DNA of 64,000 nucleotides from a virus (IMGVR_UViG_3300033555_000001:160001-224000), one strand, 5' to 3'. Shown: positions 27,884 through 54,500, counted from the first letter of the stretch. A program made the numbers and translations. Notes: a model not told the origin generated them from the sequence alone.

Positions 27884-27916
27884 CCTGTAAGATCAGATAT
27901 TTAGCCCTCTATGATC
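27884..27916. repeat. 33-nt direct repeat, copy 2 (copy 1 at 28281-28313, which spans the gp46 3' end and TAAATA)
   Basis: CCTGTAAGATCAG(A/G)TATTTAGCCCTCTATGATC, 32/33 identical. Confidence 0.9.
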
Positions 27917-27934
27917 TTGATAAGTCTACGGTGT

Positions 27935-28273
27935 TTAATAAAGTGGTTTTTTCTTAGTGAAAATTACATCGAACGAATTATCATTCTGTTCAAAACGAAA
28001 CATCGCCCAACCAGCAGCTTTTTCTTTTGCTATTGCTAAATTAAATGTCGCTTTATAAACATCAGGCGTGGTATTTTTTGGCATCTTAATAAGTTTTGAT
28101 TTGACGTCGCAGCCAGCGTTGTATAACTTCATCAGCTTGGTGGCGTCGGCACGCGACATCCATATATTGGCTGCAGAACCTTTGTCTTCAAGAAACTCAT
28201 AGAAGCCGTCAAGATCGGTAAATGCAAATCGCAATTTGGCTTCGGTAATTTGTAATAGCTGCTTCAATATCAT
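27935..28273 (-). CDS. Hypothetical putative head-internal protein
   Basis: Leader MILKQLLQITE; enclosed by the 33-nt repeats. Confidence 0.55.
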   Translation of the reverse strand: MILKQLLQITEAKLRFAFTDLDGFYEFLEDKGSAANIWMSRADATKLMKLYNAGCDVKSKLIKMPKNTTPDVYKATFNLAIAKEKAAGWAMFRFEQNDNSFDVIFTKKKPLY

Positions 28274-28297
28274 AATTCCCCCTGTAAGATCAGGTAT

Positions 28298-30037
28298 TTA
28301 GCCCTCTATGATCGTACTAAACCCGTGATGCTTTTGTATTGTCATTGACCGATCTAATCGACCTTGGATATTTTGATGATGACTGATAACATAGATACCA
28401 AGATCCTCGTCACGGCTCTTTTCTTTTAGAATCCTGACAATTGCGTCAATTCCCGCGCTGTCAAGTGCGCCATCCAGCTCGTCAATCAGGAGCAGATTAC
28501 ATTTGGCGTGCAAGTGGTGCAACACGTCTCTGAACGCCAGGGCCATGCCGGTATTGACGCGCTTCTTTTCGCCGGCTGACAAGTTACCAAAGTCAAGGTC
28601 TCGCCCAAACTCAGACACAGTACAGCTCAGGTCAGCGTCAAATTTCACAATGTGCGGCAGCCCAAGCTTAGCCGTGTAGTTGTTGATTCGACTGTTCAAG
28701 AACGGAATGGTTCGGCTAATAATTCGCCGGCGCAGAAATGAATCTTTAGAGGTAAGCAGCTTTAGCAGAAACGCCTGATGTTCTAATCGTTTTTTCAGAG
28801 CATCAACTTTTTCAGGTTCTGCTGCTTGTGCAGTTTCAGCGCTTAACTGCTTAAACGCTTCAGTGTGCGGATTAACTGCGGTGGCTAAATCACCAAGCTT
28901 TACGGTCATGACTGATGAATTTTCACGGGCGGCCAAGAGCTCTTTCAAGTTACTGTGCTTGATAGCGCCTTCAACTTCAGCGAGCCGCTGTGCATGGGAC
29001 TGCACCTGTAGAGCCAGGTCGCCTACCACTTCCTCAACCTCCAGCAGTCTGGCGCCTTTAGCTTCAATGGCCGCATCCAGTTCTGTGAGCTTTTTTGGAG
29101 CATCAGCAAATTGCTGCAAACAGTACGGGCAATTTGCTTTAGCCAAGTGCGTCTGCTCGCTGAGTAGCCTTTCTACTTCAGCGGTGAGTAACTGCCGATC
29201 TTTTTTGGCTGGGGCCAGCTTAGAGTTTAGTTGTGCACCCTCTTGCGCCAGAGCAGTGCGCTCGTCATGCAGTAACTGCTCAAGCTCAAAGTCAACTGTG
29301 CCAAGCACCGCCAGGGTTTTTTCAATACTGGCTATTTCTTGCTGGCGCGTAACTTCCCAGCGATCTACTCTACTTGAGGCATCTGTAATCTGCTTTTGAT
29401 GCAGTTCTGCTGCTGTTAATTGCTGCTTGAGTACCGCCTCTTGTACTTTTAAATCGCTCTCTGTTTCGCGAATCAGCTCTTTGAGCACTTTTGCTTTTTC
29501 AGACAGGAGTGTAATGTTAAACAGTTCTTCAATTTGATTGCGCTGCGCTGCGGTTGGCAGCTGCAAAAACGCCACTGAGTTACCGGAGAAAATAATAGTC
29601 TTGGTAAAGAGATCATAAGAAATTCCAATGATCTCCTCGATCATTTTATCGCACTCAATTACGCTTTTACCTGGTGTAATGTCATCGCCGTTCTTCCACA
29701 GGTTAATTGTAAAGTGCTCACCACGTGTTCGTAAAATTTCATACTCATCACCGCCCCGCTCAAATGACAGGCGTACTTCCATGAGTGTGTTCTTTGATGC
29801 GTTTGTGCTGTTAATCAACCGCTGTAGACTGATATTGTCAAACGGCTTGTTGTACAGCGCGTAACACAGCGCGTTAATGATTGTAGTTTTGCCAGCGCCA
29901 TTTGAGCCGCCAACGTCTAGATTTTGGCCATCAATAGTTACAGTGCCAGGCTCGGCCAGATTTATTACGGTATCATTTTGGCCGAACGATAGAAAGTTTC
30001 TGAGCGTCAAGTCCCTGAAATACAGTGTACTGCTCAT
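28298..30037 (-). CDS. Recombination nuclease ATPase subunit (gp46/SbcC-like)
   Basis: Walker A GSNGAGKTT, signature LSAGEKKR, Walker B LLLIDE, central CPYC zinc hook. Confidence 0.95.
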   Translation of the reverse strand: MSSTLYFRDLTLRNFLSFGQNDTVINLAEPGTVTIDGQNLDVGGSNGAGKTTIINALCYALYNKPFDNISLQRLINSTNASKNTLMEVRLSFERGGDEYEILRTRGEHFTINLWKNGDDITPGKSVIECDKMIEEIIGISYDLFTKTIIFSGNSVAFLQLPTAAQRNQIEELFNITLLSEKAKVLKELIRETESDLKVQEAVLKQQLTAAELHQKQITDASSRVDRWEVTRQQEIASIEKTLAVLGTVDFELEQLLHDERTALAQEGAQLNSKLAPAKKDRQLLTAEVERLLSEQTHLAKANCPYCLQQFADAPKKLTELDAAIEAKGARLLEVEEVVGDLALQVQSHAQRLAEVEGAIKHSNLKELLAARENSSVMTVKLGDLATAVNPHTEAFKQLSAETAQAAEPEKVDALKKRLEHQAFLLKLLTSKDSFLRRRIISRTIPFLNSRINNYTAKLGLPHIVKFDADLSCTVSEFGRDLDFGNLSAGEKKRVNTGMALAFRDVLHHLHAKCNLLLIDELDGALDSAGIDAIVRILKEKSRDEDLGIYVISHHQNIQGRLDRSMTIQKHHGFSTIIEG

Positions 30038-30369
30038 TTTGAAAGCTTTACTGGCAAGTCGTTAATGCTGATGATCTTAATCGTAAAATCACCCTCTTCT
30101 TCTGCCTTCTTTGAAAAGCTAGAAAAAATACCAGACATGATACCAGACATACGTTCGGAGTCCTTGTGGCATATGTATACGGAGCCGCTGGCTTGAGGCA
30201 TGGTGTACTGCTCACCGTCAAACACAACGCTTTCAATTCCTGAGCTCAGTTTCCATGAATCACCATTAGCAAAGCCGCCATACCAGCTAGCAAGCACTTT
30301 ATTAATTGTGCCATGTTCGGCAGAATCTAACTCTACAATTACCCATGCATCCGGATGATAGTCGCTCAT
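30034..30369 (-). CDS. Conserved hypothetical phage protein
   Basis: YHPDAWVIV...KVLASWYGGFANGDSWKLSSGI is a motif I recognise from T4-like phages. Confidence 0.65.
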   Translation of the reverse strand: MSDYHPDAWVIVELDSAEHGTINKVLASWYGGFANGDSWKLSSGIESVVFDGEQYTMPQASGSVYICHKDSERMSGIMSGIFSSFSKKAEEEGDFTIKIISINDLPVKLSK

Positions 30370-31685: not shown

Positions 31686-31970
31686 ATGAAATTTCTGAAA
31701 ATTGCGTTCCACGCCGATACCGAGGAATCACTGGACTCGATTCTTGAGTACATGAAAACGACGCTAGACAGAAATGAAATAGTTACAGAAGATGGCTTTA
31801 CGTACATTGAGATCCTTACCGACGCCGAGTTGGTGGATGAGCTGATTTGCCTTGGCGGTTGCCTGCTGGAGCTTGACAATGATGGTTATGAGGACGCGTT
31901 TTTTGTCGAGATCGTGGAGCTTGATGTTGCTCCAGTGGACTGCGACGCACCACCGCAGTACTTGCAGTGA
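31686..31970 (+). CDS. Acidic hypothetical protein
   Basis: GGAG Shine-Dalgarno; ends APPQYLQ*. Confidence 0.55.
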   Translation: MKFLKIAFHADTEESLDSILEYMKTTLDRNEIVTEDGFTYIEILTDAELVDELICLGGCLLELDNDGYEDAFFVEIVELDVAPVDCDAPPQYLQ

Positions 31971-31975
31971 GCGAT
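31947..31975. repeat. 29-nt direct repeat A (second copy at 32581-32609)
   Basis: GCACCACCGCAGTACTTGCA(G/A)TGAGCGAT, 28/29 identical. Confidence 0.9.
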
Positions 31976-32455
31976 CTTCTCAATCCTAAGGCTATTTGTA
32001 AGCTAACGGAAGAGCAGTGGGGAGGTTCATACCCTATTAGTTGGGACCCTATCAAAAAAGGCATTAGTGTTGACCGAGCCGTGAAAAATACATTTGGGGG
32101 AGAAGGTGGGAGGTTTGACCCCTTTGATATGAATTTTTTTGTTGGCAACATCAGCCATCATGAAATAAAAACAACAACCACGAACTGGATTAAGCTTTCA
32201 CCAAAAGAAAAAGAGCTTGCGGATAGCCTTTTACAGCAGAAATTAGATATGCTGTACTGGATTTATTTCCAACATCAAGCCCGAGACGACTTTCAATTTA
32301 AGTGCATAGTTAGATGGAGTAAATTAACGCAAAACGATTTAATTTTCACATCACAGTACGACATGTGCAATGTTGAGCGAGAAGGTGTTTGGACAGTAGA
32401 ACCAGGTTATTGTTTCTCTTTATCCCGAGCCCTGTCAACAGCTGAACCTAATTAA
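31967..32455 (+). CDS. Hypothetical protein
   Basis: 162 aa ORF whose start lies within repeat A. Confidence 0.55.
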   Translation: MSDLLNPKAICKLTEEQWGGSYPISWDPIKKGISVDRAVKNTFGGEGGRFDPFDMNFFVGNISHHEIKTTTTNWIKLSPKEKELADSLLQQKLDMLYWIYFQHQARDDFQFKCIVRWSKLTQNDLIFTSQYDMCNVEREGVWTVEPGYCFSLSRALSTAEPN

Positions 32456-32472
32456 TAATCTTAAAAAAATTG

Positions 32473-32560
32473 TCGCTTGTTACAATATCTCATCTCCTGT
32501 CACCTACGTCGGGCGACAAAATAGGAGAAAATTAAATGACTCAAGAAAATCAAACTGCAA
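32473..32560. repeat. 88-nt direct repeat B (second copy at 33251-33338): promoter, RBS hairpin and first codons of the MazG-like gene
   Basis: 81/88 identical by manual alignment. Confidence 0.9.
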
Positions 32561-32600
32561 CTGCGCTGGTGGGCGGTGGTGCACCACCGCAGTACTTGCA

Positions 32601-33224
32601 ATGAGCGATATTAATCTGATAAGAGCTTTGACAGGCAATAACCGAATTGAGCGAATTAGGCAGGCTAGGCTTGATTCAAGTTTCAATACAGTTATTGCAA
32701 TATTAAAAGAATATTGCAGTGCAATACCAGCCTTTTCAGCGGACACAATTGGTCAAGAATTATTCGATGAGGTTAACAATATTGTCATCATTGCGAATTT
32801 ACAGCCAGACCAAAAAAGATCAAAGGCTAAAAAAGAAGCTGATTTTAAGAGGGGGATGTTTTGCGAGTGCATGGTACGAGACGTGTTGCGTTTAGCACTT
32901 GCAGAAATTGGATGGAAATGCGAGTGGCCCAACGATTCTGGGCCACGTGACCTAATTCTGACTAGCCCCGCAAAAATTAGATTTTTAGTAGATGTGAAAA
33001 CAAAGGCTGTTTTACCTGGCAAATCTGGAACTGTTACGTGTTCAGAGTCTGAGGCAAGAGCGCTGGTTAACGGCATGTACAAAAATGAAAAAATAGATGA
33101 AATACTATTAGCAATATTTAACATAAGCACAGCTGGAATTTATACATTTGCGGACGTTCGCCGCGCAAAAACAGAAGCATGGAGTCTGAGTGAGGATGGC
33201 TGCAGCTGGTATTTTGAATTTTAA
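32601..33224 (+). CDS. PD-(D/E)XK nuclease-like protein
   Basis: GPRDLIL...LVDVKTK resembles a PD-(D/E)XK motif. Confidence 0.45.
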   Translation: MSDINLIRALTGNNRIERIRQARLDSSFNTVIAILKEYCSAIPAFSADTIGQELFDEVNNIVIIANLQPDQKRSKAKKEADFKRGMFCECMVRDVLRLALAEIGWKCEWPNDSGPRDLILTSPAKIRFLVDVKTKAVLPGKSGTVTCSESEARALVNGMYKNEKIDEILLAIFNISTAGIYTFADVRRAKTEAWSLSEDGCSWYFEF

Positions 33225-33313
33225 CCCAAACATCGCATAACCGGCAAATTTCGCTTGTTACAATATCTCATCTCCTGTCACCTGTGTTGGGCGACTGAAT
33301 AGGAGAAAATTAA

Positions 33314-33799
33314 ATGACTCAAGATAATCAAACTACAATTATGCCAGCAGCCAATTTAGAAGCACCTCAAATCAATACTGACTGGGTTGCTGACATTGCT
33401 GACATGCATACGAAATTCGGCGTTAACACAGTTATCAGAAAACTTAATAAAGCAGACTTGGCCAAGTTCTTAAAATTTCGCGTTGATTTCTTGCAAGAAG
33501 AACTAGACGAGATGATTGCAGCCAGCGAAGACCCTGACTACAAAAAGCCAGACGCTCGTGGCGACGACATTGTCGATGCGCTGATTGACATTTGCGTTGT
33601 TGCAATTGGCACCATGAACGCGTTTGATGTTGATGCGCATACAGCATGGGCCAGAGTCCACAGTAAAAACATGGAAAAGAACGCTGGCGTCAATCCCAAT
33701 AGGCCCAACGAATTAGGACTGCCGGATCTGATCAAACCAGCTGGTTGGACTAGCCCTACACATGCGGATAATGTTGGCTTGTTAAGCAAGCTGTTTTAA
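33314..33799 (+). CDS. MazG-like NTP pyrophosphohydrolase
   Basis: FLQEELDEM, DDIVDALIDICVVAIG and RVHSKNMEK motifs. Confidence 0.8.
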   Translation: MTQDNQTTIMPAANLEAPQINTDWVADIADMHTKFGVNTVIRKLNKADLAKFLKFRVDFLQEELDEMIAASEDPDYKKPDARGDDIVDALIDICVVAIGTMNAFDVDAHTAWARVHSKNMEKNAGVNPNRPNELGLPDLIKPAGWTSPTHADNVGLLSKLF

Positions 33800-33800
33800 T

Positions 33801-38800: not shown

Positions 38801-38910
38801 GAATGATTTAAAACCGGCGGCGCGGTCTGTGTATCTTGTAATGCCTAAATACAAAACACTATTTGTCACCTAATGCCTCTATAATCGCGCATTTGCAACA
38901 TGGAAACTAA

Positions 38911-40791
38911 ATGACTCTGCCTATTACCAAATGTCCTGAAGGAGTTGGATCTATCTACGCCGATGGAACACGCACTGTGGGCGGTGTAGTTCCAGGCGGA
39001 TCAGTCGTTGGTGCCAGCACCGGTAACAGGTACACGCACACAAATCCATACGTGACGCCTGACATCTGCCTTGGCACTTTTAATCTGCTGGACTGTCAAG
39101 ATCTCTACCAGGAGCAATTGGCCGCTGAAAATTTAAATATCAGCGGTGCTCCATTAAACGTCTTTAAACTGCTTGGCGTACACGAGCAGGGAAAATTAAT
39201 CGATTTAGTCGGTGGTGGTCAGGCGCTAAACAGTACGGCACCTGCGTTTGACACCTTAGAATCAAACTGGGTGAGCGACCAGACGGGCATGGGGGTACTG
39301 ACTGCGCCATCATGGATTGGTTATGACTTTGGCACTATTAAGACTTCATTTGGACAAGACACCACTGCACCTGGATCACCAGCCGCCCAGCACATTACCT
39401 CTCTTAGAATAAGTCAGCCATCTAATGGTCGCCGCGCCCTACAAATAAGAGTAGATCGCAGTACTGGTGGCTTTGCGGTGGATCCACTTAAGGTGCAGTA
39501 CACTGGAACCGGTACTGGCTATTTTGCCGATTTTGCGTCAGGTGCCGGTGCCACCCCGGGATCTTTTATGCTCCTGGCTAATACTCCCACAAGCTTTACC
39601 GTTTACTACACCACGGCCACAACGGAGGTGGTAGGCGTGCTTACCGTTGGCGTTAGATTCAATTCACCATACGGTTCTTTTGTTGTACAAGCTGGCGCTG
39701 TGCCCTTTGGTGTTGGCGACATGTTCAGAGTGCCAGTTGAGCTTGAGTGGTACCGAGTTGATGTTGTTAACTTGCCAGACGTTCCAACCCCTGCGTTAAT
39801 TCGTATTAAGCAGTCATCGCCCTCGCGGTACTGGCGTGTTGTGCCAACATCGTTCAGCGGCGTCACGAGCGGTGAGGCGTGGGAAGTTGAGCAATTAGAA
39901 CTCTTTGACTTTCAAGCCACTCGTCTTGACGATGTTCAGGATCAGTTGTTTCTTGAAAACAGGGATCGGGACTATGCTAAACAGTCAGTGCAGTTTAAGG
40001 TAACTTACCAGCCATTTGACTCGCAGTCTGATCTCTCCAAATTCGGCTTTCAAGTATCAGACATTTATTCGTTTACTACTGTATTCAGCACAATGGTGCG
40101 TGCTCTTGGCCGGCCAATTGTAATTGGCGACGTGCTTGAAGTACCAAGTGAAATGCAGTACGATCACAACCTACGGCCAGTCCGAAAATTTCTAACGGTT
40201 ACTGATACTGGCTGGGCCAGTGACGGTTATACCACAAGCTGGCGGCCTATTACCTTTAAATTTCAGGCTGAACAGCTAATCCCAAGCCAAGAAACCAGAG
40301 ATATATTGGGAACGGTAGACACGCAAAAGTACGCCATTGATGACAGCGACTTTTTTGCCGGTATTCAGCAAATTCAAACTGGCCCGCTTACCTCCACCGA
40401 GGCAACAAACGCTGAGGCCGCCCTTGCAACGCCGGAAAAAGGCGAGCAATCACGTGAACTGGCCTCTGGAACAAATAGATTCCAGCGCCCTGGCAGCACA
40501 GATCAAGTAGGCCTCTACGTTGAAGATGGCCTGCCGCCCGGCGGCTTACCGTACACCGAAGCCTTTAAGCTGCCAGATGTAGGTGGTGCAGTTGACGGCC
40601 AGTATTTCAGGCTGAACTACGATCCAAAATTAAATATTGCTTCTCGACTGTACAAATTTAATGGTATTAAAAATACCTGGATGTACGAGGAAACTGACCG
40701 CCGCAGTGAACGCAACAGCATGAAACCATCGCAGCGTGAAGTGTTTAACCAACCTATTGTTGCATCGCTTACCACAAAGAGGATTACATGA
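38911..40791 (+). CDS. Neck protein gp14-like with inserted domains
   Basis: ENLNISG, LFLENRDRDY, DLSKFG and RPIVIGDVLE motifs. Confidence 0.8.
   Translation: MTLPITKCPEGVGSIYADGTRTVGGVVPGGSVVGASTGNRYTHTNPYVTPDICLGTFNLLDCQDLYQEQLAAENLNISGAPLNVFKLLGVHEQGKLIDLVGGGQALNSTAPAFDTLESNWVSDQTGMGVLTAPSWIGYDFGTIKTSFGQDTTAPGSPAAQHITSLRISQPSNGRRALQIRVDRSTGGFAVDPLKVQYTGTGTGYFADFASGAGATPGSFMLLANTPTSFTVYYTTATTEVVGVLTVGVRFNSPYGSFVVQAGAVPFGVGDMFRVPVELEWYRVDVVNLPDVPTPALIRIKQSSPSRYWRVVPTSFSGVTSGEAWEVEQLELFDFQATRLDDVQDQLFLENRDRDYAKQSVQFKVTYQPFDSQSDLSKFGFQVSDIYSFTTVFSTMVRALGRPIVIGDVLEVPSEMQYDHNLRPVRKFLTVTDTGWASDGYTTSWRPITFKFQAEQLIPSQETRDILGTVDTQKYAIDDSDFFAGIQQIQTGPLTSTEATNAEAALATPEKGEQSRELASGTNRFQRPGSTDQVGLYVEDGLPPGGLPYTEAFKLPDVGGAVDGQYFRLNYDPKLNIASRLYKFNGIKNTWMYEETDRRSERNSMKPSQREVFNQPIVASLTTKRIT
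40768..40791. repeat. 24-nt direct repeat (gp14 3' end; second copy at 41232-41255)
   Basis: CTTACCACAAAGAGGATTACATGA vs CTTGCAACCAAGAGGATTACATGA, 21/24 identical. Confidence 0.7.
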
Positions 40792-41222
40792 TCACGTTTA
40801 AGCAGTATATTAATGAGCAGGTAGCTGTTAATGTACCGCGCGTATTGTTTCATGCTGCACCTAGCAAATATAAACAAGATATTTTAAAACAAGGTCTTAA
40901 GCCTAGTAAAGGCGGCACGACGTTTTTAAATAGAACGTATTCAGCACGCGTTCATTTATGTACTAGGATTGAAGCGGCATGGGACTTCACAATGAGCATC
41001 AACGCACGCCGTGAGCAGGGTGAAGATGAAATTGAGTATGACATTTTCCACATAAACGTTGAAGAGCTTCCAGAAAATACTGAATTTTATACAGATCCAG
41101 CGTTTGACCACTTTGGGGTTTGGACTGAAGGTGTAATTCCGGCAACATCAATTGTTAAAGTTACTAAAGTTGATCATGACTGGGAACCGGATGATGATTA
41201 CTACGCTGGAAAAAATGAATAA
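40788..41222 (+). CDS. ADP-ribosyltransferase-fold (Tpt1/DUF952-like) protein with capsid-targeting-like leader
   Basis: MITFKQYINE; VLFHAAP..YKQDILKQGLKP; RVHLCT; GVIPATSI. Confidence 0.6.
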   Translation: MITFKQYINEQVAVNVPRVLFHAAPSKYKQDILKQGLKPSKGGTTFLNRTYSARVHLCTRIEAAWDFTMSINARREQGEDEIEYDIFHINVEELPENTEFYTDPAFDHFGVWTEGVIPATSIVKVTKVDHDWEPDDDYYAGKNE

Positions 41223-41251
41223 GCAATATAACTTGCAACCAAGAGGATTAC

Positions 41252-41695
41252 ATGAGATTAGATGAAATTAAAAAGCAGCTCACCCGCGCAGAAAAAGACG
41301 CCAAGCGAGATGCTGGTAAGAATGAACTGGCCAAGATTGATGCCGCAAACAAAGAAAAAGCGCTTGCAGCCAGGGATGCTAAGTACAACAACGGTGAGGC
41401 TCTTACAATTAAGCTCCCGGTAATTGGATCTAATGGTAAAATTACTACTCAGGAATTTATAATTGATAACTACCTGAAGCAGCGGCACGCCATGCAGGAT
41501 GTGCGGTTAAAGGATTTGAGCAAAGTGCCAGCTCTGCCCGGCGATCGTAAAGAAAAATCTTCATTTATTATTGACATGAATACCAAACACACAGAAGGTT
41601 CAATTGCCGCGTATTTGCACGGGCTGCCAAGTGGCACAAAACGCAAGGCTGGTGCAGAGCCAAACGATTTTAGACGAGAAGCGTACACGGCGTAA
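41252..41695 (+). CDS. Basic hypothetical protein
   Basis: Leader MRLDEIKK. Confidence 0.55.
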   Translation: MRLDEIKKQLTRAEKDAKRDAGKNELAKIDAANKEKALAARDAKYNNGEALTIKLPVIGSNGKITTQEFIIDNYLKQRHAMQDVRLKDLSKVPALPGDRKEKSSFIIDMNTKHTEGSIAAYLHGLPSGTKRKAGAEPNDFRREAYTA

Positions 41696-44626: not shown

Positions 44627-46471
44627 ATGGCAACACTCGTTTCCCCAGGTGTTTCAGTCTCAGTCACCAACGAGAGCTTCTTTCTTCCAGTAACTGCACC
44701 TACCGTGCCGGTTATCTTTATCGCCACAAAGAGCGGTAAACTGCAACCAAACGGTATTACCCCCGCAGCTGGTACTCTAGAATTTGGCGTCGTTCGTACG
44801 GTTACTTCGGTCCCACAGTCTGTTGAGCTCTTTGGCGTGCCCCATTTCCGCAACGATGTTTCGGGTAATGAGTTCCACGGTGATGCTCGCAATGAATATG
44901 GTCTCTTGGCGCTAAACCAATTTTTAGCAGCTGGTAATCGCGCGTACGTTGTTCGCGCAAATATTGACCTAACCGACGAACCAGAAACATTCATGTCGCT
45001 GGGAACACCAGGCTTGGTTGGCTCATCTGTTTCGTACAACGGCATTGGCGATGGTTCAATTGAATCAATCACAGCGGTAAGTAATGCCGTGAAGCCTCAG
45101 CTGTTTGCAGTACTGTTTACTTCACCAACGTCCTTTTCGGTTACAGGCGCACTGTCTGGCTACATTGGCGCTGGTAACGTAGATGCTGCCTTTACCTCGT
45201 CTAAAATTAACTTTACTGTTATGTCTGGCGCAGTGCCATTTAGCGCTGGCGACACATTCACGTTTAACATGGCCCATATGGCTGTTGCTGCAGGCAGCAA
45301 TACTGGTAATGGTTCTGTTGTTTCACTAACAGTTGATACACTTGCGCTGCCTGAAACTATTACTGTTCTGATGACATCAGCGTCTGCGTTTCAGGTTAAC
45401 AGCACAGTTTCAATGATTGAAAACGGCGTTGTCGGTTCGGCATTTGATAACAACCGCGTTAACTTTACTGTTCAGGCTGGCACCGTTCCATTTGTTGCTG
45501 GTGATGAGTTCACAATCACTGTAAGTTCAGTAACTGTAAGTGCTCCGCTGGGCGCTAACGATGCAGCAAAACGTGTTGCTATTGTTACCGCACTGCAAGC
45601 CGCAATTAACAGCAATGGTGATGTCCGGTCGGAACTCTATGAGTTTAACTTGATTGCTTGCCCAGGTTATCCAGAAGTTGCAGATGAATTACATTCGCTG
45701 AGCGCGTCAACAAAGCAAGAGTCTTTGGTTATTGCTGACACCCCGTGTGATAAATCACCGGATCAAGTTGCACAGTGGGCACTAACATCTGCTCGTGCTG
45801 CAGGCGAAGACATTGCGTATTACTATCCATGGTGCCTGACATCTAACCTTGACGGCCGCGACGTACTTGGCGCACCATCGGGTACTGCTCTTCGCACCAT
45901 AGCGTTCAGTGATCAACAAGGTTATGTATGGTCTGCTCCAGCCGGAGTATCAAATGGTGTGGTGTCTGGCGTATCTCGTCTGGCCTATATAACTGGCACC
46001 AAGGGTACTGCAACCACGCTGATTGAGACTAATCTAAATCAGGGTCAACGCGATAACCTGTACGAATACGATAAAAACATTAACCCAATCTCGTTCTTCC
46101 CGGGCCGTGGATTTATGTTGTTTGGACAGAAAACTTCAGCACCAGCAGCAAGTGCTCTTGACCGCATTAACGTTGCACGACTGGTTATGTACTTGCGTCG
46201 TACACTGCGCAAAGGTGCGTTGCCATTTGTTTTCCAACCAAACGATCAAATCACACGTGATAACTTGAAAGCCGCAGCCGATGGTATCTTGAATGATGTA
46301 TTGACTAAGCGTGGATTATATGATTTTGCCACTCAGTGCGATACTAGCAACAACACTGCGGTAAGAATAGATCGAAACGAGCTGTGGTTAGACGTTGCAA
46401 TCAAGCCAACGAAAACAGCCGAATTTATTTATATCCCGATCCGTGTTGTTAGTACTGGTGCAAATATCTAA
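44627..46471 (+). CDS. Tail sheath protein (gp18-like)
   Basis: MATLVSPGVSV, KNINPI, ALDRINVARL and PTKTAEFI motifs. Confidence 0.97.
   Translation: MATLVSPGVSVSVTNESFFLPVTAPTVPVIFIATKSGKLQPNGITPAAGTLEFGVVRTVTSVPQSVELFGVPHFRNDVSGNEFHGDARNEYGLLALNQFLAAGNRAYVVRANIDLTDEPETFMSLGTPGLVGSSVSYNGIGDGSIESITAVSNAVKPQLFAVLFTSPTSFSVTGALSGYIGAGNVDAAFTSSKINFTVMSGAVPFSAGDTFTFNMAHMAVAAGSNTGNGSVVSLTVDTLALPETITVLMTSASAFQVNSTVSMIENGVVGSAFDNNRVNFTVQAGTVPFVAGDEFTITVSSVTVSAPLGANDAAKRVAIVTALQAAINSNGDVRSELYEFNLIACPGYPEVADELHSLSASTKQESLVIADTPCDKSPDQVAQWALTSARAAGEDIAYYYPWCLTSNLDGRDVLGAPSGTALRTIAFSDQQGYVWSAPAGVSNGVVSGVSRLAYITGTKGTATTLIETNLNQGQRDNLYEYDKNINPISFFPGRGFMLFGQKTSAPAASALDRINVARLVMYLRRTLRKGALPFVFQPNDQITRDNLKAAADGILNDVLTKRGLYDFATQCDTSNNTAVRIDRNELWLDVAIKPTKTAEFIYIPIRVVSTGANI
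46409..46471. repeat. 63-nt direct repeat: last codons of the sheath gene (second copy at 48465-48527)
   Basis: 58/63 identical by manual alignment. Confidence 0.95.
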
Positions 46472-46493: not shown

Positions 46494-46517
46494 AAAGGCA
46501 GATAGTATCTGCCTTTT
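46494..46517 (+). terminator. Terminator after the sheath gene
   Basis: AAAGGCAGATA-G-TATCTGCCTTTT. Confidence 0.7.
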
Positions 46518-46561: not shown

Positions 46562-47989
46562 ATGCCAACATGTAAAATATGCGGATACGCTCATGAGATA
46601 ATGATTCACTTTACTCATATCAGAAAACATGGTATGACGGTTCAGGAATATAAGCTAAAATTTCCCGGAGCCGCGCTGCGTGTGCAGAGCGAAGAATCTA
46701 AATTAAAAATGTCGGCCTCTAAAACAGGAAAGCCTTCTGGACTAAAGGGGAAAATCAGGTCTGAAGAACACTCTAAAAATATATCGGCCGCGCTAAAAGA
46801 AGCTTACTCTTCAGGAAAAATACAACATTGGAACTCAGGTAACACTACTCCACTGTGCGTTAAGGAAAAAATTGCGCAGGGAAATAGAGGCACAATAAAT
46901 GCTGGAAACATAAAGCAAAAGTTAAAAAAGCAGGAGAGAATTAAAGCCGGTGCCATAGCGTTTGGCTGTGAAGTGTTAAGCTGTGATGTAGAAGAACGCA
47001 CCACAGTAAAGTGCCTTGAATGTAAACACGTGTTTAGTTTTACAAACCAAATATTTTATGAAACTCGTTTAGAAAAGACTGGAAAGCTATGCCCGTCTTG
47101 TCAACCGCGAATTACATATTCTTCTGCGGGTGAGCAAGAGCTATTAAATTTCATCAAGTCAGTTTATGCTGGAATAATAATACCCAATGACCGAGGCGCT
47201 CTTGGAGGAAAAGAATTAGACGTTTATTTACCTGAACTCAAGATTGCATTTGAGTACACGGGGTTGTATTGGCACGCTGAAAAACAGAACCCAATAAACA
47301 AGCACTTGTTGTGGAAGAGAGACTTTGCGTTCAATCAAGGAGTCGAACTAATTACTGTGTTTGAAGATGAGTGGCACGATAAACAAGACATTGTTAAGTC
47401 TAGAATTATGAACATGCTAGGTCTTCAGGGTTTTAAATCTGCGGCCAGAAAATTAAAAATAGGTGTTCCATCCGTTAAAGAGAAGAATTTATTTCTGACT
47501 GAGAATCACTTGCAGGGTAGAGATACAAGTTCTGACTGGGCTGCGCTTATGGATGGTGGCGAGATCGTGTGCATTGCCACTTTTAAGAAAACTAGTATAT
47601 CAAAAGGCGGTTCTGGTGATCAGTGGGAATTAAGCAGGTTTGCATCAAAATTAAACACCCAGGTGCAGGGCGGAGCCAGCAGGCTTGTAAGCTGGTTTGT
47701 GCGCAAATACAAAGCAGACCTGGTGTCTTACGCTGATTCTAGATGGAGCACTGGAAAACTTTATAGAACTATGGGATTTGATTTTATCCATCGCTCTTCT
47801 CCAAGCTATTGGTACTTGTTAGATGGTTACAAACGACGCGTGCACCGCTCTGCGTTCATGAAACATCGACTTGTAAAATGTGAAGAGGATAAAGCTTTTA
47901 CGGAATGGGAACTTGCTCAGCAAGCAGGCATGGATCGCATTTGGGATTGCGGCACAACAAAGTGGCTGTTAAAGTACAATCCAAATTAA
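46562..47989 (+). CDS. Hef-like homing endonuclease with GNAT-like C-domain
   Basis: ELDVYLPELKIAFEYTGLYWH; CLEC/CPSC zinc ribbon; ELSRFAS; SYADSRWSTGKLY; IWDCG. Confidence 0.75.
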   Translation: MPTCKICGYAHEIMIHFTHIRKHGMTVQEYKLKFPGAALRVQSEESKLKMSASKTGKPSGLKGKIRSEEHSKNISAALKEAYSSGKIQHWNSGNTTPLCVKEKIAQGNRGTINAGNIKQKLKKQERIKAGAIAFGCEVLSCDVEERTTVKCLECKHVFSFTNQIFYETRLEKTGKLCPSCQPRITYSSAGEQELLNFIKSVYAGIIIPNDRGALGGKELDVYLPELKIAFEYTGLYWHAEKQNPINKHLLWKRDFAFNQGVELITVFEDEWHDKQDIVKSRIMNMLGLQGFKSAARKLKIGVPSVKEKNLFLTENHLQGRDTSSDWAALMDGGEIVCIATFKKTSISKGGSGDQWELSRFASKLNTQVQGGASRLVSWFVRKYKADLVSYADSRWSTGKLYRTMGFDFIHRSSPSYWYLLDGYKRRVHRSAFMKHRLVKCEEDKAFTEWELAQQAGMDRIWDCGTTKWLLKYNPN

Positions 47990-48076: not shown

Positions 48077-48430
48077 ATGACATACATCGCTGAATTAAAT
48101 CGTACACGGCATCTTGCTGGCTTACAGCCGCTGTCAGAGGCTCAAACGTCAAAAATCTCTTCAGAGCTTAATGAAGCGTTTATCGAGCTAGATTGGGCTC
48201 TTGGTAATACGCCTAAAGAAGTTGAAAAGCTCGTTAAAGCAGCTGCAGAAAAAGAAGACTTAAAAGCAGAAATCATCACAATGGACGGCCCGGGCGGTGG
48301 CAACCCGCTTGTAAGATTCTCAGGTAAAAAAGCTAACATTAAGAAGTTTCTAGTAACATATTGCCATGGCGACGAAACTGAAGCAGATTTCATGATGAAT
48401 GACATTGGTCATAAGCAAGGGACTAGATAG
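48077..48430 (+). CDS. Putative head-internal protein with LNRxRxLAG leader
   Basis: MTYIAELNRTRHLAGLQPLSE; late promoter and AAGG Shine-Dalgarno upstream. Confidence 0.6.
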   Translation: MTYIAELNRTRHLAGLQPLSEAQTSKISSELNEAFIELDWALGNTPKEVEKLVKAAAEKEDLKAEIITMDGPGGGNPLVRFSGKKANIKKFLVTYCHGDETEADFMMNDIGHKQGTR

Positions 48431-48548
48431 GTATCTTTTTGCGGACCAACGTACTTATTCACGTACGAAAACATCCAAATTTATTTATATCCCAATCCGC
48501 GTTGTTAGTACTGGCGCAAATATCTAAAGCAGCAATTAAGCAATAATG

Positions 48549-48575
48549 AAAGGGACCCGAAGGTCCCTTTTTATT
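48549..48575 (+). terminator. Intrinsic terminator after the orphan sheath-end copy
   Basis: AAAGGGACC-CGAA-GGTCCCTTT followed by a T tract. Confidence 0.8.
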
Positions 48576-48981: not shown

Positions 48982-49776
48982 TTAGGAAAGTATTGTCTTT
49001 AATCTGACTAACTCCTGCTTTTGTTTGTGCTTCCACAAGAGCTCCCAAAACTCATGAATTACAATTCCCTGCTCTGCAGCGTATGCAAGTTTATCAGCTT
49101 CGCGTGACCCATCGCCTGGGTGCCAGTATTCACCGTGGTATTCAAAACCAATTTTTAAATCTGGAAGATAGATGTCAATTTCTTTTGGCTTTATCGCTTG
49201 GCGATCATTCACAATAATCCGACCAGTATATAGTGCTTTCACGGCCTCATACAGTTCACCTTGCCCCCGAGATACATGGCAGGACGGACACCAAATACCA
49301 GTCACGCGAGTAAACGGCCGGCTAAAAACTTCACCGCATATATGGTGCCACTTGTATTCGTTTTGCATGCCAGGAATAATCTCATCAACTGGTGTAATGC
49401 CCTTTACTGCAAGTTTATCAAGCTTAGCCTGCGCACGATTGTTGAAGTGCGCGCTTTTCATGTCATAAGAAGTCTGCGCTTTCCATTCAGGATCTGCCCA
49501 GAGCTTTTCGTGACGTATAGATTTTTCTGGAGCTAATAATGCTTGAGCACACTTCATTGAACACACTTTTCTGTAACCCACTGTGTAATTTATCCAGTTT
49601 GTTAGCTTTCCGCAGTAACATGTTGGCCGTATGTTTAAGACGTTCCAGGCCTTCTCGGAAATGCTATTACCATGATATTCATTCAACCATATTAGGCGCT
49701 CAGCGTTGCGCCATTTACCAGCACAATATTTGCCATCTTGGAACAAGGCAACGATGAGTTCAGTTTGTTTTGTCAT
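48982..49776 (-). CDS. Short Hef-like endonuclease (no GNAT-like C-domain)
   Basis: CYCG...GYRKVCS; EIDIYLPDLKIGFEYHGEYWH. Confidence 0.7.
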   Translation of the reverse strand: MTKQTELIVALFQDGKYCAGKWRNAERLIWLNEYHGNSISEKAWNVLNIRPTCYCGKLTNWINYTVGYRKVCSMKCAQALLAPEKSIRHEKLWADPEWKAQTSYDMKSAHFNNRAQAKLDKLAVKGITPVDEIIPGMQNEYKWHHICGEVFSRPFTRVTGIWCPSCHVSRGQGELYEAVKALYTGRIIVNDRQAIKPKEIDIYLPDLKIGFEYHGEYWHPGDGSREADKLAYAAEQGIVIHEFWELLWKHKQKQELVRLKTILS

Positions 49777-50487: not shown

Positions 50488-50512
50488 TTTAAAGGGCCTG
50501 CTTTTTGCAGGC
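50488..50512. repeat. 25-nt direct repeat of the tube-gene terminator (second copy at 50830-50854)
   Basis: 23/25 identical; only the downstream copy keeps the full AAAGGGCCTG/CAGGCCCTTT stem. Confidence 0.75.
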
Positions 50513-50524
50513 TTTTATTGGATC

Positions 50525-50812
50525 TTGGAGAATAAATTGAATCTTGTTGAAACATTAAACAGAGCACGCGAGCTTGCCGGAATGGAGCCGCTGTCAGAAG
50601 CTGCAGCCAAAAAAATATCTAGCCCGTCATATAAAATTACATGGGAGGGTTATCCAAATAATCCTAAGCCAGAAACTCATGGCATTGAGTATTTTACAGA
50701 TGACCTGGCATTTGACAATGATGATCGTAATAAAATTAAAGATCTCGGAGTTGGCGACAAACATGTTATGGCTGGTCCTATGGACTCCGTCACGGTTGTT
50801 CGGATAAAGTAA
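50525..50812 (+). CDS. Putative head-internal protein with LNRxRxLAG leader
   Basis: ...VETLNRARELAGMEPLSE. Confidence 0.55.
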   Translation: MENKLNLVETLNRARELAGMEPLSEAAAKKISSPSYKITWEGYPNNPKPETHGIEYFTDDLAFDNDDRNKIKDLGVGDKHVMAGPMDSVTVVRIK

Positions 50813-50933
50813 TCTAGTTAAAAGTAGTTTTTAAAGGGCCTGTTTCTTGCAGGCCCTTTTAGTATGCGCAGTAGATTAATACACACGCTTGAGTATAGCT
50901 AAATATCTTATTACTTTATAGCCTGGAAATATA

Positions 50934-51245
50934 ATGAAACTTAGCGAAATTATTGGCGAGTCAGCGGTTAGTTACACGGTTCAGCCGACAAAACGATTTT
51001 GGCTGGTATTTGCCGAGCCCACATCCTTTAAGCAGTTAACACAGGATAAAAAATTCCTGGCGCACGCCGGCCCGCACACTACTTTTTTAGACGTTTCAGA
51101 TGTTGAAGATGTTAAACTGTCTCCTGGCGAAAATAAGTGGAATGCTATGAAGCGGCTTTATAGTAATGACGAAGATGAAATCACTTGCTCCAACTCTGGT
51201 GTTCCAACAGAATGGGTGTGTCTTGCAATCAACGTGTCCATCTAA
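50934..51245 (+). CDS. Putative head-internal protein
   Basis: Leader MKLSEIIGE; late promoter upstream. Confidence 0.55.
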   Translation: MKLSEIIGESAVSYTVQPTKRFWLVFAEPTSFKQLTQDKKFLAHAGPHTTFLDVSDVEDVKLSPGENKWNAMKRLYSNDEDEITCSNSGVPTEWVCLAINVSI

Positions 51246-51247
51246 AA

Positions 51248-52537: not shown

Positions 52538-52983
52538 TGGCCGGAACACGCAAAACATTTCAGGGAAGATTTATGCCTAAGAACCCAGGTAAATACTTGG
52601 GCAACGTTGGGAAAATAATTTTTCGATCAGGTTGGGAACTGCGAATGTTTCAGTGGTTTGATGCTACCCCATCTGTTTTACAGTGGGCAAGCGAAGAGTT
52701 TTCAGTTCCATATCTGTCACCACTTGATAACAAAGTGCACCAGTACTATCCGGATGCGTTTGTCATCTATAAAGATAAGTTTGGAAATTTGCAAAAAGAA
52801 ATTATTGAAATTAAACCGTACAAAGAAACAGTGCTTGGCCCAAAATCAACAGAGCGTGACAAGTTAGCGTGGGTAGTTAATCAGGCTAAATGGAAAGCTG
52901 CCGCACTGTTTGCTGAGCAACAGGGCTCTAAGTTCCGAGTAGTAACAGAAAAGTCTATGTTCGCCAATGGAAAAACAAAATGA
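52537..52983 (+). CDS. Head completion nuclease (gp4-like, TnsA-type)
   Basis: FMPKNPGKYLG, FRSGWE, WASEE, YYPD and EIKP motifs. Confidence 0.9.
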   Translation: MAGTRKTFQGRFMPKNPGKYLGNVGKIIFRSGWELRMFQWFDATPSVLQWASEEFSVPYLSPLDNKVHQYYPDAFVIYKDKFGNLQKEIIEIKPYKETVLGPKSTERDKLAWVVNQAKWKAAALFAEQQGSKFRVVTEKSMFANGKTK

Positions 52984-52984
52984 T
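52970..52984. repeat. 15-nt exact direct repeat at the stop/start junction (second copy at 53449-53463)
   Basis: GAAAAACAAAATGAT flanks ORF 52980-53462. Confidence 0.6.
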
Positions 52985-53462
52985 TCTTTTGCGAGAACTG
53001 TTGGGCAGCCCTCTCGAATATACTTGGGTACAGCAACACGATGCTTACTGGAGAGCAGAATTTTTTGTTAATGGAGTTAGTTACTCAGTTATTGCAAGTG
53101 AAGAAAATAATTTTAAAGATGAAGGCGGAAATGATGCCGTGTATTGGGAAATATCGTTTGCGCAAACTGAAAAATCATTGACTGGAACTAAAACTAATTC
53201 TGGTGGAGAGTTACAAGTTTTTTCAACCGTTCAAGCAGCGGTGTTTGATTTCTTAGATCAGAAAAAACCCGATTGGATTGGCATAAGCTCAACTAAAAAA
53301 GAAGAGAACAGATTTAATTTATACTTACGAATGATCAACCGGTTAACGAGTAAACTTAACGGTATGGGTTATTCTTTGCATTCGTGCCCAACTTATGGAG
53401 ACACGTCTATCCAGCAATATCTGGATCAATATGAAACTTATTGCATGAGAAAAACAAAATGA
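52980..53462 (+). CDS. Putative head-internal protein, paralog of 55890
   Basis: Leader MILLRELLG; WEISF...NSGGELQVFSTV. Confidence 0.6.
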   Translation: MILLRELLGSPLEYTWVQQHDAYWRAEFFVNGVSYSVIASEENNFKDEGGNDAVYWEISFAQTEKSLTGTKTNSGGELQVFSTVQAAVFDFLDQKKPDWIGISSTKKEENRFNLYLRMINRLTSKLNGMGYSLHSCPTYGDTSIQQYLDQYETYCMRKTK

Positions 53463-53905
53463 TACCTTCAAAATTTAGTAATCCTCTTGATAGTCTTTTT
53501 GACATTGAAGCGGGTGATCGTGACGAGATGCAGGAATACGTCTCCACAACTGAAAATGAGATAACGGCACAGGCCCCTGCTGTAGTGGAAAAAGATCAAG
53601 AGGACATTGATACTGATCGTAAAATAGACGAGGTGTATGATACTGCGCTTAACTCATTTCAAGAACTAGTAGCGTACACGCAGATTATTGAGCCGCGCTA
53701 CGCAGCCCGCAATGCGGAAGTTGCTGCCACGTACTTAAGCCTGGCACTGCAGGCTGCTACTTCAAAGGCTAAGTTAAAAACCGACCGCAAGCGCGTTGCA
53801 ACGTTTATTCCAGGCGGTAACAAGGTTACTAACAATACTGTTGTGTGTTCAAGAGAAGAAATTATGCGAATGATTTCTGTAGATGCTGAAGTCAAGAAGA
53901 TCTAA
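53459..53905 (+). CDS. Terminase small subunit-like (gp16-like)
   Basis: Helical EPRYAARNAEVAATYLSLAL...NNTVVCSREEIMRMI; upstream of the large terminase. Confidence 0.6.
   Translation: MIPSKFSNPLDSLFDIEAGDRDEMQEYVSTTENEITAQAPAVVEKDQEDIDTDRKIDEVYDTALNSFQELVAYTQIIEPRYAARNAEVAATYLSLALQAATSKAKLKTDRKRVATFIPGGNKVTNNTVVCSREEIMRMISVDAEVKKI
53864..53905. repeat. 42-nt direct repeat: 3' end of the small terminase-like gene (second copy at 54349-54390)
   Basis: 38/42 identical; 3 of 4 differences are synonymous. Confidence 0.9.
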
Positions 53906-53928
53906 TTATTAGACAAGGGAGATACACA

Positions 53929-54342
53929 ATGCAATTACTTCAAGAATTATTAGGTTTGCTCAAGGGGCAAAAGCAAAAAGGCAGGTTGACTGAAGCAGAA
54001 AAGACGGGCTATCAGATCAAAGTTGATTCAGCCGTTAGAGGAAATTGGAAGGATTCGCATTTGAATGCTGCTTCACTTGACGATATAGCCAGTGCGGTTT
54101 CCGCTTCACCAGTAGATGATCAGGCTCATGACAAATTTAACCTGAGCAAACTTACCACATTAGTTACAGATTTTATTGGTGTTGGGCCTGGTGGTCAAGG
54201 AACATCCTGGGAAGAAATAGACTATGACGTGGTATCCTTACAAGATGATGTGCTGAAAATTAGCTGGAGATTTTCAGGTGTAAAGCAGAGCGACACAGAA
54301 GTGGTAAAAACAGGCATGATTACAATAATGCCAGCTGAATAA
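53929..54342 (+). CDS. Putative head-internal protein
   Basis: Leader MQLLQELLG; enclosed by the 42-nt repeats. Confidence 0.55.
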   Translation: MQLLQELLGLLKGQKQKGRLTEAEKTGYQIKVDSAVRGNWKDSHLNAASLDDIASAVSASPVDDQAHDKFNLSKLTTLVTDFIGVGPGGQGTSWEEIDYDVVSLQDDVLKISWRFSGVKQSDTEVVKTGMITIMPAE

Positions 54343-54500
54343 AATAACATGCGAAAGATCTCTGTAGACGCTGAAGTCAAGAAGATTTAATTTACTAAAC
54401 AGATGTACATTAATTTAACAGATGTACATTAATGTTGCCATTAAATAACTGAGTCCTGTCTAGCCAGACTCTCTAAATACTCGACAACCTGGAGATAGCC

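Follow-up and report, generated by a model that had tools for sequence, protein, structure and literature searches.

The DNA studied here belongs to the 310-kb genome of a giant T4-like phage from an ice metagenome. The window, which is the whole stretch of 64,000 nucleotides that was analysed, contains six pairs of direct repeats. A sequence-only reading had described each pair as copying the end or terminator of an upstream core gene and enclosing a leader-bearing ORF. All six pairs were found, the first of them on the minus strand at the gp46 locus:

27412..27876, minus: L154, the resident gp46 neighbour in relatives
27884..27916, minus: gp46 repeat, copy 2, a remnant with promoter and UTR that precedes L154
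27935..28273, minus: L112, inserted leader-bearing ORF
28281..28313, minus: gp46 repeat, copy 1 (33 nt, 1 mismatch), with the final 15 nt of gp46, the stop codon in CTAAATA, and the 5' UTR and RBS of L112
28298..30037, minus: gp46-like Rad50/SMC recombination ATPase (Pfam SMC_N/AAA_23), whose stop codon overlaps the late-promoter motif

The CTAAATA motif was observed 28 times upstream of starts, against 2.3 expected. More than 20 relatives carry L154 after gp46, and in four related contigs it lies 35-75 nt behind that gene. No homologue of L112 was found in 38 gp46 loci of relatives.

Repeat pairs in the structural and packaging genes

The second pair follows a gp14-like gene, which in relatives often directly precedes a 300-aa core gene:

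38911..40791, plus: gp14-like virion gene, 626 aa
40768..40791, plus: gp14 junction repeat, copy 1 (24 nt, exact over 15), with gene end, RBS and ATGA overlap
40788..41222, plus: L144, inserted leader-bearing ORF
41232..41255, plus: gp14 junction repeat, copy 2, which gives p147 its RBS and start

Two further pairs lie at the tail sheath and tail tube genes:

44627..46471, plus: tail sheath gene, which ends in repeat copy 1 (63 nt, 46409-46471); a terminator lies behind it at 46494-46516
46562..47989, plus: free-standing homing endonuclease gene, 475 aa (PHROG 3339/559; N-terminal NUMOD3, Pfam)
48077..48430, plus: L117, an ORFan with a 29-aa N-terminal leader common to L117 and L95
48465..48527, plus: sheath 3'-end remnant, in frame with its stop codon retained (5 differences over 63 nt, 3 synonymous and 2 non-synonymous)
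48982..49776, minus: second endonuclease gene of the same family, 264 aa
49882..50475, plus: tail tube gene
50488..50523, plus: tube terminator hairpin, copy 1
50525..50812, plus: L95, inserted leader-bearing ORF
50830..50865, plus: tube terminator hairpin, copy 2

The last two pairs lie at the head-closure gene and the small terminase gene (terS):

52970..52984, plus: junction of the head-closure gene and the next gene, copy 1, 15 nt with ATGA overlap
52980..53462, plus: L160, inserted between the head-closure gene and terS
53449..53463, plus: head-closure junction, copy 2 (15/15 identical), providing the final codons of L160 as well as the terS RBS and start
53864..53907, plus: terS 3' end, repeat copy 1
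53929..54342, plus: L137, inserted leader-bearing ORF
54349..54392, plus: terS 3'-end remnant (4 differences over 44 nt, 3 synonymous and 1 non-synonymous)
54393..54929, plus: spacer native to the downstream side of terS, carrying a late promoter, and L142 after it

Only 15 nt of the gp46 repeat are coding, the remainder being late promoter, UTR and RBS. At the tube gene, what is duplicated is a terminator hairpin and no gene end. The sheath pair additionally holds the 475-aa homing endonuclease gene, which the earlier reading had overlooked.

When the 310-kb genome was searched, each repeat was present in exactly two copies and was private to its own pair. Local repeats of at least 36 bits numbered 159 in the real genome and 0 in five Markov-shuffled genomes. 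Seventeen of 425 genes had their own 3' tail recopied within 3 kb downstream at a score of at least 15, compared with 0 of 425 in the reverse-complement control. In translation-start regions, in-register identical runs of at least 15 nt were limited to 4 gene pairs out of about 103,000; adjacent genes made up three of these four, and they included the two shortest repeat pairs (gp14-like and head-closure). The shuffled-genome, reverse-complement and start-region counts thus place the repeat pairs beyond chance.

Three pairs are perfect repeats, 100% identical. In the sheath and terS repeats, the two longest coding ones, most differences had been called synonymous, and 6 of the 9 do fall at third codon positions (binomial P about 0.04); with nine differences, this bias between copies is real yet weak. 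One of the non-synonymous changes in the sheath remnant is E to K at a residue that is invariant in more than 45 relatives. The remnant is followed by a different, bidirectional terminator (48549-48570) from that after copy 1. The pattern of differences and the different sheath terminators fit two alleles from related phages.

Copies that differ as strain alleles would could also arise if the metagenome assembler had stitched two strain variants in tandem, and related phages do co-occur in the sample. However, an independent Logan assembly of the source run gave a single contig that spans all 19.9 kb with 0 differences and an even depth of 24. The junctions also need spanning reads, and nine such scars are spread over different parts of the genome. 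We consider an assembly artefact extremely unlikely.

Gene order in related phages

Relatives have a single copy of the gene end, as had been expected of sites without cargo, and the enclosed genes are extra in comparison with about 100 related contigs. The reading of the repeats as insertion scars is supported. The remnants are colinear with native downstream DNA at terS, L142/p96, L154 and the head-closure/terS junction. Many relatives have the head-closure gene right next to terS, and in one of them the two meet at a junction of the same type. Three related contigs have L142 and p96 on the downstream side of terS; the sole homologue of L137 (51%) stands in a different context. In a near relative, terS (ending at the equivalent of 53907) is joined to 54430 via 17 nt, with one copy and then the native spacer; this evidence comes from a short Logan contig, and the gene that follows the spacer there resembles L137 at its start, and not L142.

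The sheath-tube gap of relatives can be as short as 23 nt or exceed 4 kb, and the slot is an endonuclease hot spot. An endonuclease gene of the 475-aa type lies directly behind the sheath gene on the plus strand in six related contigs, and one of the 264-aa type lies before the tube gene, at the same place and in the same (minus) orientation as here, in three. Both parental types of this slot thus occur separately in relatives, and the genome studied here has both, with the sheath remnant in between. A full parental genome, having a single slot type and a nucleotide identity above 90%, was not recovered. About 45 relatives have insertions after the sheath gene yet no remnant, so such scars must be either rare or short-lived, and this genome is unusually rich in them. 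A group I intron in the sheath gene was rejected, as 26000-56000 gave no Rfam match at E up to 1.

Because the phage encodes five paralogous endonuclease genes of one family, two of them in this hot spot, one could suppose that homing endonucleases mobilised every cassette, in cis or in trans, each by cutting a core-gene end. The five share a D...E..G..WH nuclease-like block (read by eye). The 475-aa protein belongs to a homing-endonuclease family (PHROG 3339, E 2.9e-85; PHROG 559, E 1.8e-82), and its gene is sporadically present at the sheath-tube site among relatives. Trans-homing is known in T4 (PMC2790892). However, an endonuclease gene is missing, both within and alongside, from five of the six cassettes as well as from the non-leader cases described below, and we regard this explanation as very unlikely.

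Unequal recombination as the proposed origin of the scars

Scars of the same kind were found upstream of the gp14-like gene, where a junction holds two remnants:

31686-31970: g94, 94 aa
31928..31978, plus: g94 3' end and p162 start, the original of the 51-nt repeat
32468..32612, plus: double-remnant junction of a MazG-like start copy and a g94 end copy
33246..33338, plus: upstream region and start of the MazG-like gene, the original of 32468-32560
33314-33799: MazG-like gene

The segment 32468-32560 is a copy (93 nt, 90% identical) of the upstream region and first 8 codons of the MazG-like gene. Behind it, 32562-32612 copies the last ~14 codons of g94 (51 nt, 80% identical), joined in frame. 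The fusion of the two remnants gives a chimeric 22-codon ORF (32536-32604), with p162 before it and p207 after it. Besides p162/p207, scars at non-leader genes include p90 behind a 169-aa gene and a 15-nt junction repeat around the paralogous small genes p79 and p76 behind the RNA ligase. Duplicated 5' gene ends occur as well as 3' ends. The proposed specificity for leader-bearing cargo is thus not supported. The earlier reading had named repeats equally common around non-leader genes as a ground for refutation, and this applies in part, although leader genes are over-represented.

We propose, as the more probable explanation, that genes were gained when related, co-replicating jumbo T4-like phages recombined unequally, and that the repeats are the scars of these events. 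Two parents would carry different accessory genes in one core-gene slot, X-a-Y in parent A and X-b-Y in parent B. A crossover that was illegitimate, or at very short homology, would join a breakpoint just behind a in A to one in B that falls some dozens of bases short of the X end. The product would be X(A)-a-(3' remnant of X from B)-b-Y, with both accessory genes retained and a second short copy of the X end that would differ from the first as an allele would. If the break on the A side fell within the start of Y, an additional 5' remnant of Y would be left. Selection would retain only products in which X is whole and the promoter, RBS or start overlap of the downstream gene is intact, so that the duplicated piece would always be a gene end or junction.

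A double-remnant junction is the expected product of a single unequal crossover, and 32468-32612 appears to be the direct footprint of one such event between two genomes with alternative genes in one slot. The scars around non-leader genes and at 5' ends match what random breakpoints filtered by selection would predict. A second related phage is present in the same sample, so co-infection is possible. The sheath event was plausibly triggered or spread by the homing endonuclease gene, which lies directly behind the sheath gene in several relatives too, and its likely route would be repair of a double-strand break with homology on one side only. Against the proposal stand the failure to recover a full parental genome, the small number of differences (9) behind the synonymous bias, and the about 45 relatives whose insertions left no remnant.

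On the other hand, the repeats may have been produced within one genome, by tandem duplication of a gene end with its downstream gene and later divergence or replacement of one copy. The paralogues p79 and p76 with their 15-nt junction repeat, the three pairs that are 100% identical, and relatives with tandem arrays of paralogous leader genes and homogenised junctions all point this way. However, in the six pairs the inside gene and the gene behind the remnant have no detectable homology beyond the leader. Synonymous-biased differences and different terminators indicate two alleles under selection in separate genomes, and the genes behind the remnants are resident neighbours in relatives, where the enclosed genes are absent. 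Duplication in situ is therefore an unlikely origin.

The sequence-only reading had suggested that the cargo genes move as small circles with a core-gene 3'-end arm, entering by a single homologous crossover and looping out again. Such a route, served by the general recombination system of the phage, would be a late-region analogue of PeSL (promoter-early stem-loop) cassettes. Circle integration would give exactly the observed order of single ORFs flanked by direct repeats of 15-93 nt, which counts in its favour and against unequal crossover. An integrase is absent here, and integrase-free mini-circles are known from PeSL-flanked ORFs of RB49 and phi1 (PMC2839356). However, an arm-bearing circle arises only from a genome that is already duplicated, so circles leave the origin without explanation. 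An arm private to one site allows movement only between the same site of related genomes, where the long core genes on either side would make an ordinary double crossover far easier. The double-remnant junction needs an illegitimate join anyway, the cargo genes, all ORFans, do not recur with the same arm in a second context, and the source-sample contigs, which hide rare forms, contain no alternative joints between repeat copies. We hold this account to be improbable, and equally doubtful the notion that the duplicated ends are working handles by which capsid-targeted cargo loops out as mini-circles and re-enters the same slot during co-infection. If true, this would be the late-gene equivalent of PeSL mini-circles, specialised in reshuffling the proteins that are packed into the head. 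Since one unequal crossover between two genomes yields the same product and would explain 32468-32612, circles and their single-crossover integration are dispensable. What stands of the earlier interpretation is the insertion scars, the extra genes, the single gene-end copy in relatives, the allele-like differences and the absence of an integrase. Besides leader specificity, recombinase independence is not supported, as the phage encodes the recombination proteins gp46/gp47 and the five homing endonucleases.

Comparison with known systems

The closest published analogue is the PeSL system of the T4-type phages RB49 and phi1, in which mini-circles were detected (Arbiol et al. 2010, PMC2839356; Comeau et al. 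2014, PMC4122927), and the idea of circles is thus not new (PMC2839356). In both cases short direct repeats surround single ORFans in a T4-like genome, the flanked ORFans are present or absent between relatives, and gene gain and loss are ascribed to general recombination without an integrase. Circles have been proposed in both but detected as intermediates only in the PeSL system. PeSLs belong to a repeat family scattered over hyperplastic early regions, and their consensus combines a sigma-70 early promoter with a stem-loop, whereas the repeats here, with two copies each in 310 kb, are private duplications of a coding end, late-promoter/RBS junction or terminator amid late core genes.

Like the free-standing homing endonucleases of T-even phages, the sheath cassette has an endonuclease gene, which in the same slot of relatives is either present or absent. 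However, five of the six cassettes have none, and no duplication results from ordinary homing. In T4, endonuclease breaks can be repaired one-sidedly and joined at microhomology (Parker, Belisle and Belfort 1999, as related in PMC2988022), which is similar in that the diverged end of a neighbouring gene travels along, with homology at one flank and none at the other. In T6, segmental tandem amplification linked to the endonuclease SegB proceeds by short-homology recombination (PMC13096335). The T4 repair and the T6 amplification are precedents for the recombination proposed here. The tandem duplications of T-even phages resemble the present units in having junctions at short or absent homology and in beginning inside one gene and ending inside or behind another. 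Except at the RNA-ligase genes p79/p76, the genes in the units here are unrelated and the differences allele-like, which indicates that two distinct parental genomes, and not sister copies, were involved.

Restoration of a target gene by its duplicated 3' end is typical of integrase att sites, and small single-gene units recall integron cassettes. An unrecognised recombinase or transposase could accordingly have inserted the cassettes site-specifically, the repeats then being its att-like cores or target-site duplications, as the three perfect pairs might suggest. However, neither Phage_integrase (PF00589) nor Resolvase (PF00239) had a match across the whole record (310 kb, estimated 87% complete; controls positive), which extends beyond the window the earlier statement that no integrase is visible. 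The repeats have no sequence common to each other, their lengths vary from 15 to 93 nt, 5' ends are duplicated and an attC-like site is absent. An integrase-type element was rejected for lack of both a recombinase gene and a common att core. A transposon or MITE was rejected because no terminal inverted repeats were found and the duplications are not of fixed length. Site-specific insertion is, in our judgement, highly unlikely.

The morons of lambdoid phages, reportedly described by Juhala, Hendrix and colleagues in 2000, are extra genes lodged among conserved structural genes, and some of them bring a promoter or terminator of their own. The genes here are likewise inserted amid conserved structural genes. 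Unlike them, morons are defined by gene content and not by flanking duplications, and the cargo here has N-terminal leaders resembling T4 capsid-targeting sequences. Gene gain by recombination of the kind that we propose is a known route, not a new cassette-integration system.

Setting and statistics of the repeat pairs

The window covers bases 160001-224000 of a 310,728-bp record, a jumbo myophage assembled from an ice metagenome. The stretch carries the T4-type recombination genes gp47 and gp46 and a late module with the genes for a gp14-like virion protein, a 300-aa core protein, sheath, tube, a second tube-like protein, head closure and the small terminase (terS). The closest named phage is Ralstonia RsoM2USA, with a sheath protein identity of only 55%, and the relatives in IMG/VR are 50-75% identical. 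Megablast of a 10.5-kb query against 50,697 phage records gave 0 matches. When JGI metagenome contigs were scanned with terS, the best relatives were at most 66% identical, so a close empty-site genome was not recovered. An assembly artefact is unlikely, since an independent contig from the source run covers 19.9 kb with 0 differences and even depth. The source sample also holds a second, more distant relative with a sheath-tube spacing of 508 nt, which makes co-infection plausible.

The six repeat pairs described in the sequence-only reading (gp46, gp14-like, sheath, tube terminator, head closure and terS) were all found where that reading had placed them. Local direct repeats of at least 36 bits within 4 kb numbered 159 in the real genome and 0 in five Markov-shuffled genomes. 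The last 60 nt of a gene recurred at most 3 kb downstream (score at least 15) for 17 of 425 genes, compared with 0 of 425 in the reverse-complement control. The two shortest pairs, gp14-like and head closure, are exact over 15 nt; to assess them, we compared every translation-start region with every other in register. Among about 103,000 gene pairs, 4 shared runs of at least 15 nt, and three of the four, including these two pairs, were adjacent genes, indicating that shared RBS-like composition is not the explanation. Each repeat is present in the genome exactly twice, which rules out a dispersed regulatory repeat family, and nine private junction duplications survive. The local-repeat list is dominated by internally repetitive genes and tandem paralogues (genome 255.6-258.8 kb and 140.3-141.8 kb; periods ~78-156 nt and 54 nt).

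The claimed bias toward synonymous differences also holds: 3 of 5 sheath and 3 of 4 terS differences fall at the third codon position, and frame and stop codon are kept (P about 0.04). Resting on nine differences, this bias is only suggestive.

Contents of the repeats and the sheath slot

The repeats had been described as copies of core-gene ends or terminators. The sheath and terS repeats copy gene ends, but the gp46 repeat is mostly regulatory, and at gp14-like and head closure the repeat is a stop/start overlap that includes the RBS and ATG of the following gene. The tube repeat is a terminator hairpin. The gp46 stop codon sits within a CTAAATA motif, from which the repeat extends through the 5' UTR and RBS, and relatives likewise carry xTAAATA at the gp46 stop. 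CTAAATA, which resembles the T4 late promoter, has 28 occurrences in the 70 nt before starts, versus 2.3 expected. Over the whole genome xTAAATA, CTAAATA above all, is about 12-fold enriched at most 70 nt upstream of start codons (for example, window 27898, 28295, 50890 and 54470). xTAAATA is probably the late promoter of the phage, related to T4's TATAAATA. A second dispersed motif of 27-35 nt (TTTGTCA, about 11 nt, TATAA), at which Logan contigs break, has six genome copies and a layout like that of T4 middle promoters.

Copies of the TTTGTCA/TATAA motif
Window 38850-38884
Genome 11599
Genome 53766
Genome 84643, minus strand
Genome 279002
Genome 307961, minus strand

The repeats had also been said to enclose leader-bearing ORFs. 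A 117-aa leader ORF does lie within the sheath pair, but so does a 475-aa free-standing homing endonuclease gene that had been overlooked. This gene, between the sheath-end copies, encodes an N-terminal NUMOD3 domain, and its PHROG matches are 3339 and 559 (E 1e-82 to 1e-85). A second, shorter family member lies on the opposite strand immediately before the tube gene, and the genome holds five members.

Members of the endonuclease family
Window 46562-47989: endonuclease family member
Genome 25201: paralogue
Genome 29259: paralogue
Genome 173472: paralogue
Genome 208982: paralogue

PHROGs labels the family HNH. Pfam and PDB sequence searches gave no nuclease-domain match for it, and neither the endonuclease nor the cargo proteins had a match in PDB or NCBIfam. 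The invariant block ELD.Y.P ... E..G.YWH looks like that of a Vsr/PD-(D/E)XK-type nuclease.

Six relatives have a gene of the 475-aa type directly behind the sheath gene, and three have a gene of the 264-aa type before the tube gene on the opposite strand. Both parental types of the sheath slot therefore exist separately among relatives. The present genome has both endonuclease types in this slot; the boundary between them is marked by the sheath remnant, which has a different terminator of its own. In the remnant, E is replaced by K at a position invariant in >45 relatives, so the remnant is decaying. A duplicated sheath end, sought by DNA and peptide pattern, was found in none of 59 related loci. 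In two relatives (L027, 8855-9439; L038, 2441-3031) the tube gene lies on the strand opposite to the sheath gene, indicating a local inversion of a core gene.

Slots in relatives and association with leader genes

We compared 59 sheath, 38 gp46 and 12 terS loci, and every junction between the compared core genes was a variable slot. The gp14-like and 300-aa genes directly adjoin in about ten relatives, and head closure and terS do so in many, with a similar junction (AAATGA) in locus L003. The sheath-tube distance is 23-170 nt in about ten relatives and up to >4 kb in others, and gp46 is followed after 35-75 nt by a homologue of L154, the gene behind the gp46 remnant. In relatives, the usual neighbours are the genes that here follow the remnants (L154; terS; L142-p96; the 264-aa endonuclease gene followed by tube). 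None of the six enclosed leader-bearing ORFs (L112, L144, L117, L95, L160 and L137) had a homologue in the compared slots; homologue searches showed L137 and L117 to be near-ORFans, and the one homologue of L137 sits in a different context with no terS arm. When about 590 kb of related loci were scanned for self-repeats, the junction repeats proved to be conserved leader-coding starts or tandem paralogues, with no core-gene remnants. In five relatives (L088, L097, L098, L107 and L113) an interruption of 0.5-1.5 kb follows about codon 50 of gp46; it could represent an intron, an intein or an inserted endonuclease.

In X2, a glacier metagenome run holding a near relative, contigs are about 90% identical. 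One links the terS end (53907) via 17 nt to 54430, which here is in the spacer behind the terS remnant, and then enters a gene starting like L137. The near relative thus has a single terS-end copy followed by the spacer. The contig indicates, on limited evidence, that remnant plus spacer is the native context downstream of terS. Behind one spacer and leader, L137-type genes seem to alternate with those of the L142 type.

Consecutive cargo genes in relatives are nearly identical over their first 20-33 nt, which encode the leader MITFKQF(L/I), and differ in the remainder. Identity at synonymous sites suggests that the leader itself is a site of homogenisation or recombination.

Near-identical leader starts in related loci
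L001: 1154, 1456, 3023
L008: 354, 1008, 1667, 2287
L040: 637, 1008, 1094
L007: 1755, 3757

The proposed specificity for leader genes and 3' ends did not hold, since genes without a leader are flanked by the same scar and 5' ends are copied too. In the 5'-end case, the initial 30 nt of a 261-aa gene recur, as part of a 31-nt perfect repeat, upstream of an inserted ORF.

Scars without a leader gene
Behind a 169-aa gene, flanking a 90-aa gene: 30 nt, 100% identical
Behind RNA ligase, flanking the small paralogues p79 and p76: 15 nt
Between a 94-aa gene and a MazG-like gene, flanking p162 and p207

Leader genes are nevertheless over-represented, at about 5 of 9 scars versus roughly 5% of all genes. 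They are the genes inserted among tightly packed late genes, where a viable insertion must duplicate the junction.

A double-remnant junction and the origin of the scars

The slot between the 94-aa gene (g94) and the MazG-like gene has the order g94, p162, [MazG start / g94 end], p207, MazG.

31686-31970, plus strand: g94
32468-32612, first part: copy of 33246-33338 (93 nt, 90% identical), the MazG-like upstream region and opening eight codons
32468-32612, second part, joined directly in frame: last ~14 codons of g94, 51 nt, 80% identical to 31928-31978

The fusion yields a chimeric 22-codon ORF. Judged from this arrangement, the junction is the predicted product of one unequal crossover between a g94-p162-MazG genome and a g94-p207-MazG genome. 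Both remnants have diverged, showing that the parents were distinct alleles rather than sister copies. Gene callers may report the ORFs at 32536-32604 (MazG-like start and g94 end) and 48399-48527 (running into the sheath 3' remnant); these are recombination scars and should be annotated as such, not as genes.

Recombination is intensive in T4-type phages. The simplest account of the scars is unequal recombination between relatives, which would join, illegitimately or at very short homology, related genomes with alternative genes in one slot. Selection would retain only products with an intact upstream gene end and downstream expression signals. The allele-like differences, the diverged remnants and the resident genes behind the remnants support one part of the earlier interpretation, that the repeats are insertion scars of allelic origin. 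Paralogy of the enclosed and following genes was rejected, with the exceptions of L160/p145 and p79/p76. From the RNA-ligase case, where the genes are paralogous, it is clear that this process also operates between sister genomes. At the sheath gene, an endonuclease break repaired with one-sided homology would be a likely trigger. One-sided, microhomology-joined events are documented in T4 intron homing (review PMC2988022), and tandem amplification linked to an endonuclease is documented in T6 (PMC13096335).

The sequence-only reading had proposed that cargo moves as circles, each integrating by a short homology arm. Circle integration would give the same final structure, but it presupposes a genome already carrying the duplication, each arm is private to one site, and the double-remnant junction requires an illegitimate join even with circles. 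Neither integrase nor resolvase genes were found (that reading, too, had seen no integrase), and integrase att sites are excluded. "Recombinase-independent" is nevertheless unjustified, since gp46 and gp47 are encoded in the window. Tests also ruled out transposon ends or target duplications and a group I intron.

The window offers an unusually clear natural record of a jumbo phage adding accessory genes between tightly packed core genes. The nine junction duplications, the fused two-gene remnant, the endonuclease-adjacent case and both parental slot types support the idea that cargo arrays arise by recombination of co-infecting relatives, filtered by the keeping of gene ends and start signals. 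The record is useful for models of phage mosaicism and does not reveal a new mobility mechanism.

Early regions contain intergenic repeat pairs around ORFans too. Pairs or triplets of 30-55 nt around small non-late ORFans (genome 1781/2376, 5764/6089, 19392/19992, 247419/248278/250034 and 282392/283112) are candidates for PeSL-like early cassettes. In the PeSL cassettes of T4-type phages, ORFan-flanking repeats recombine without an integrase, and mini-circles were detected by inverse PCR (PMC2839356); a new cassette mechanism is not needed here, nor is the concept new. The dispersed promoter-terminator consensus that defines PeSL is missing from the present repeats, which sit in the late module. 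PeSL is the closest published system, and the present repeats are alike in logic but not members.
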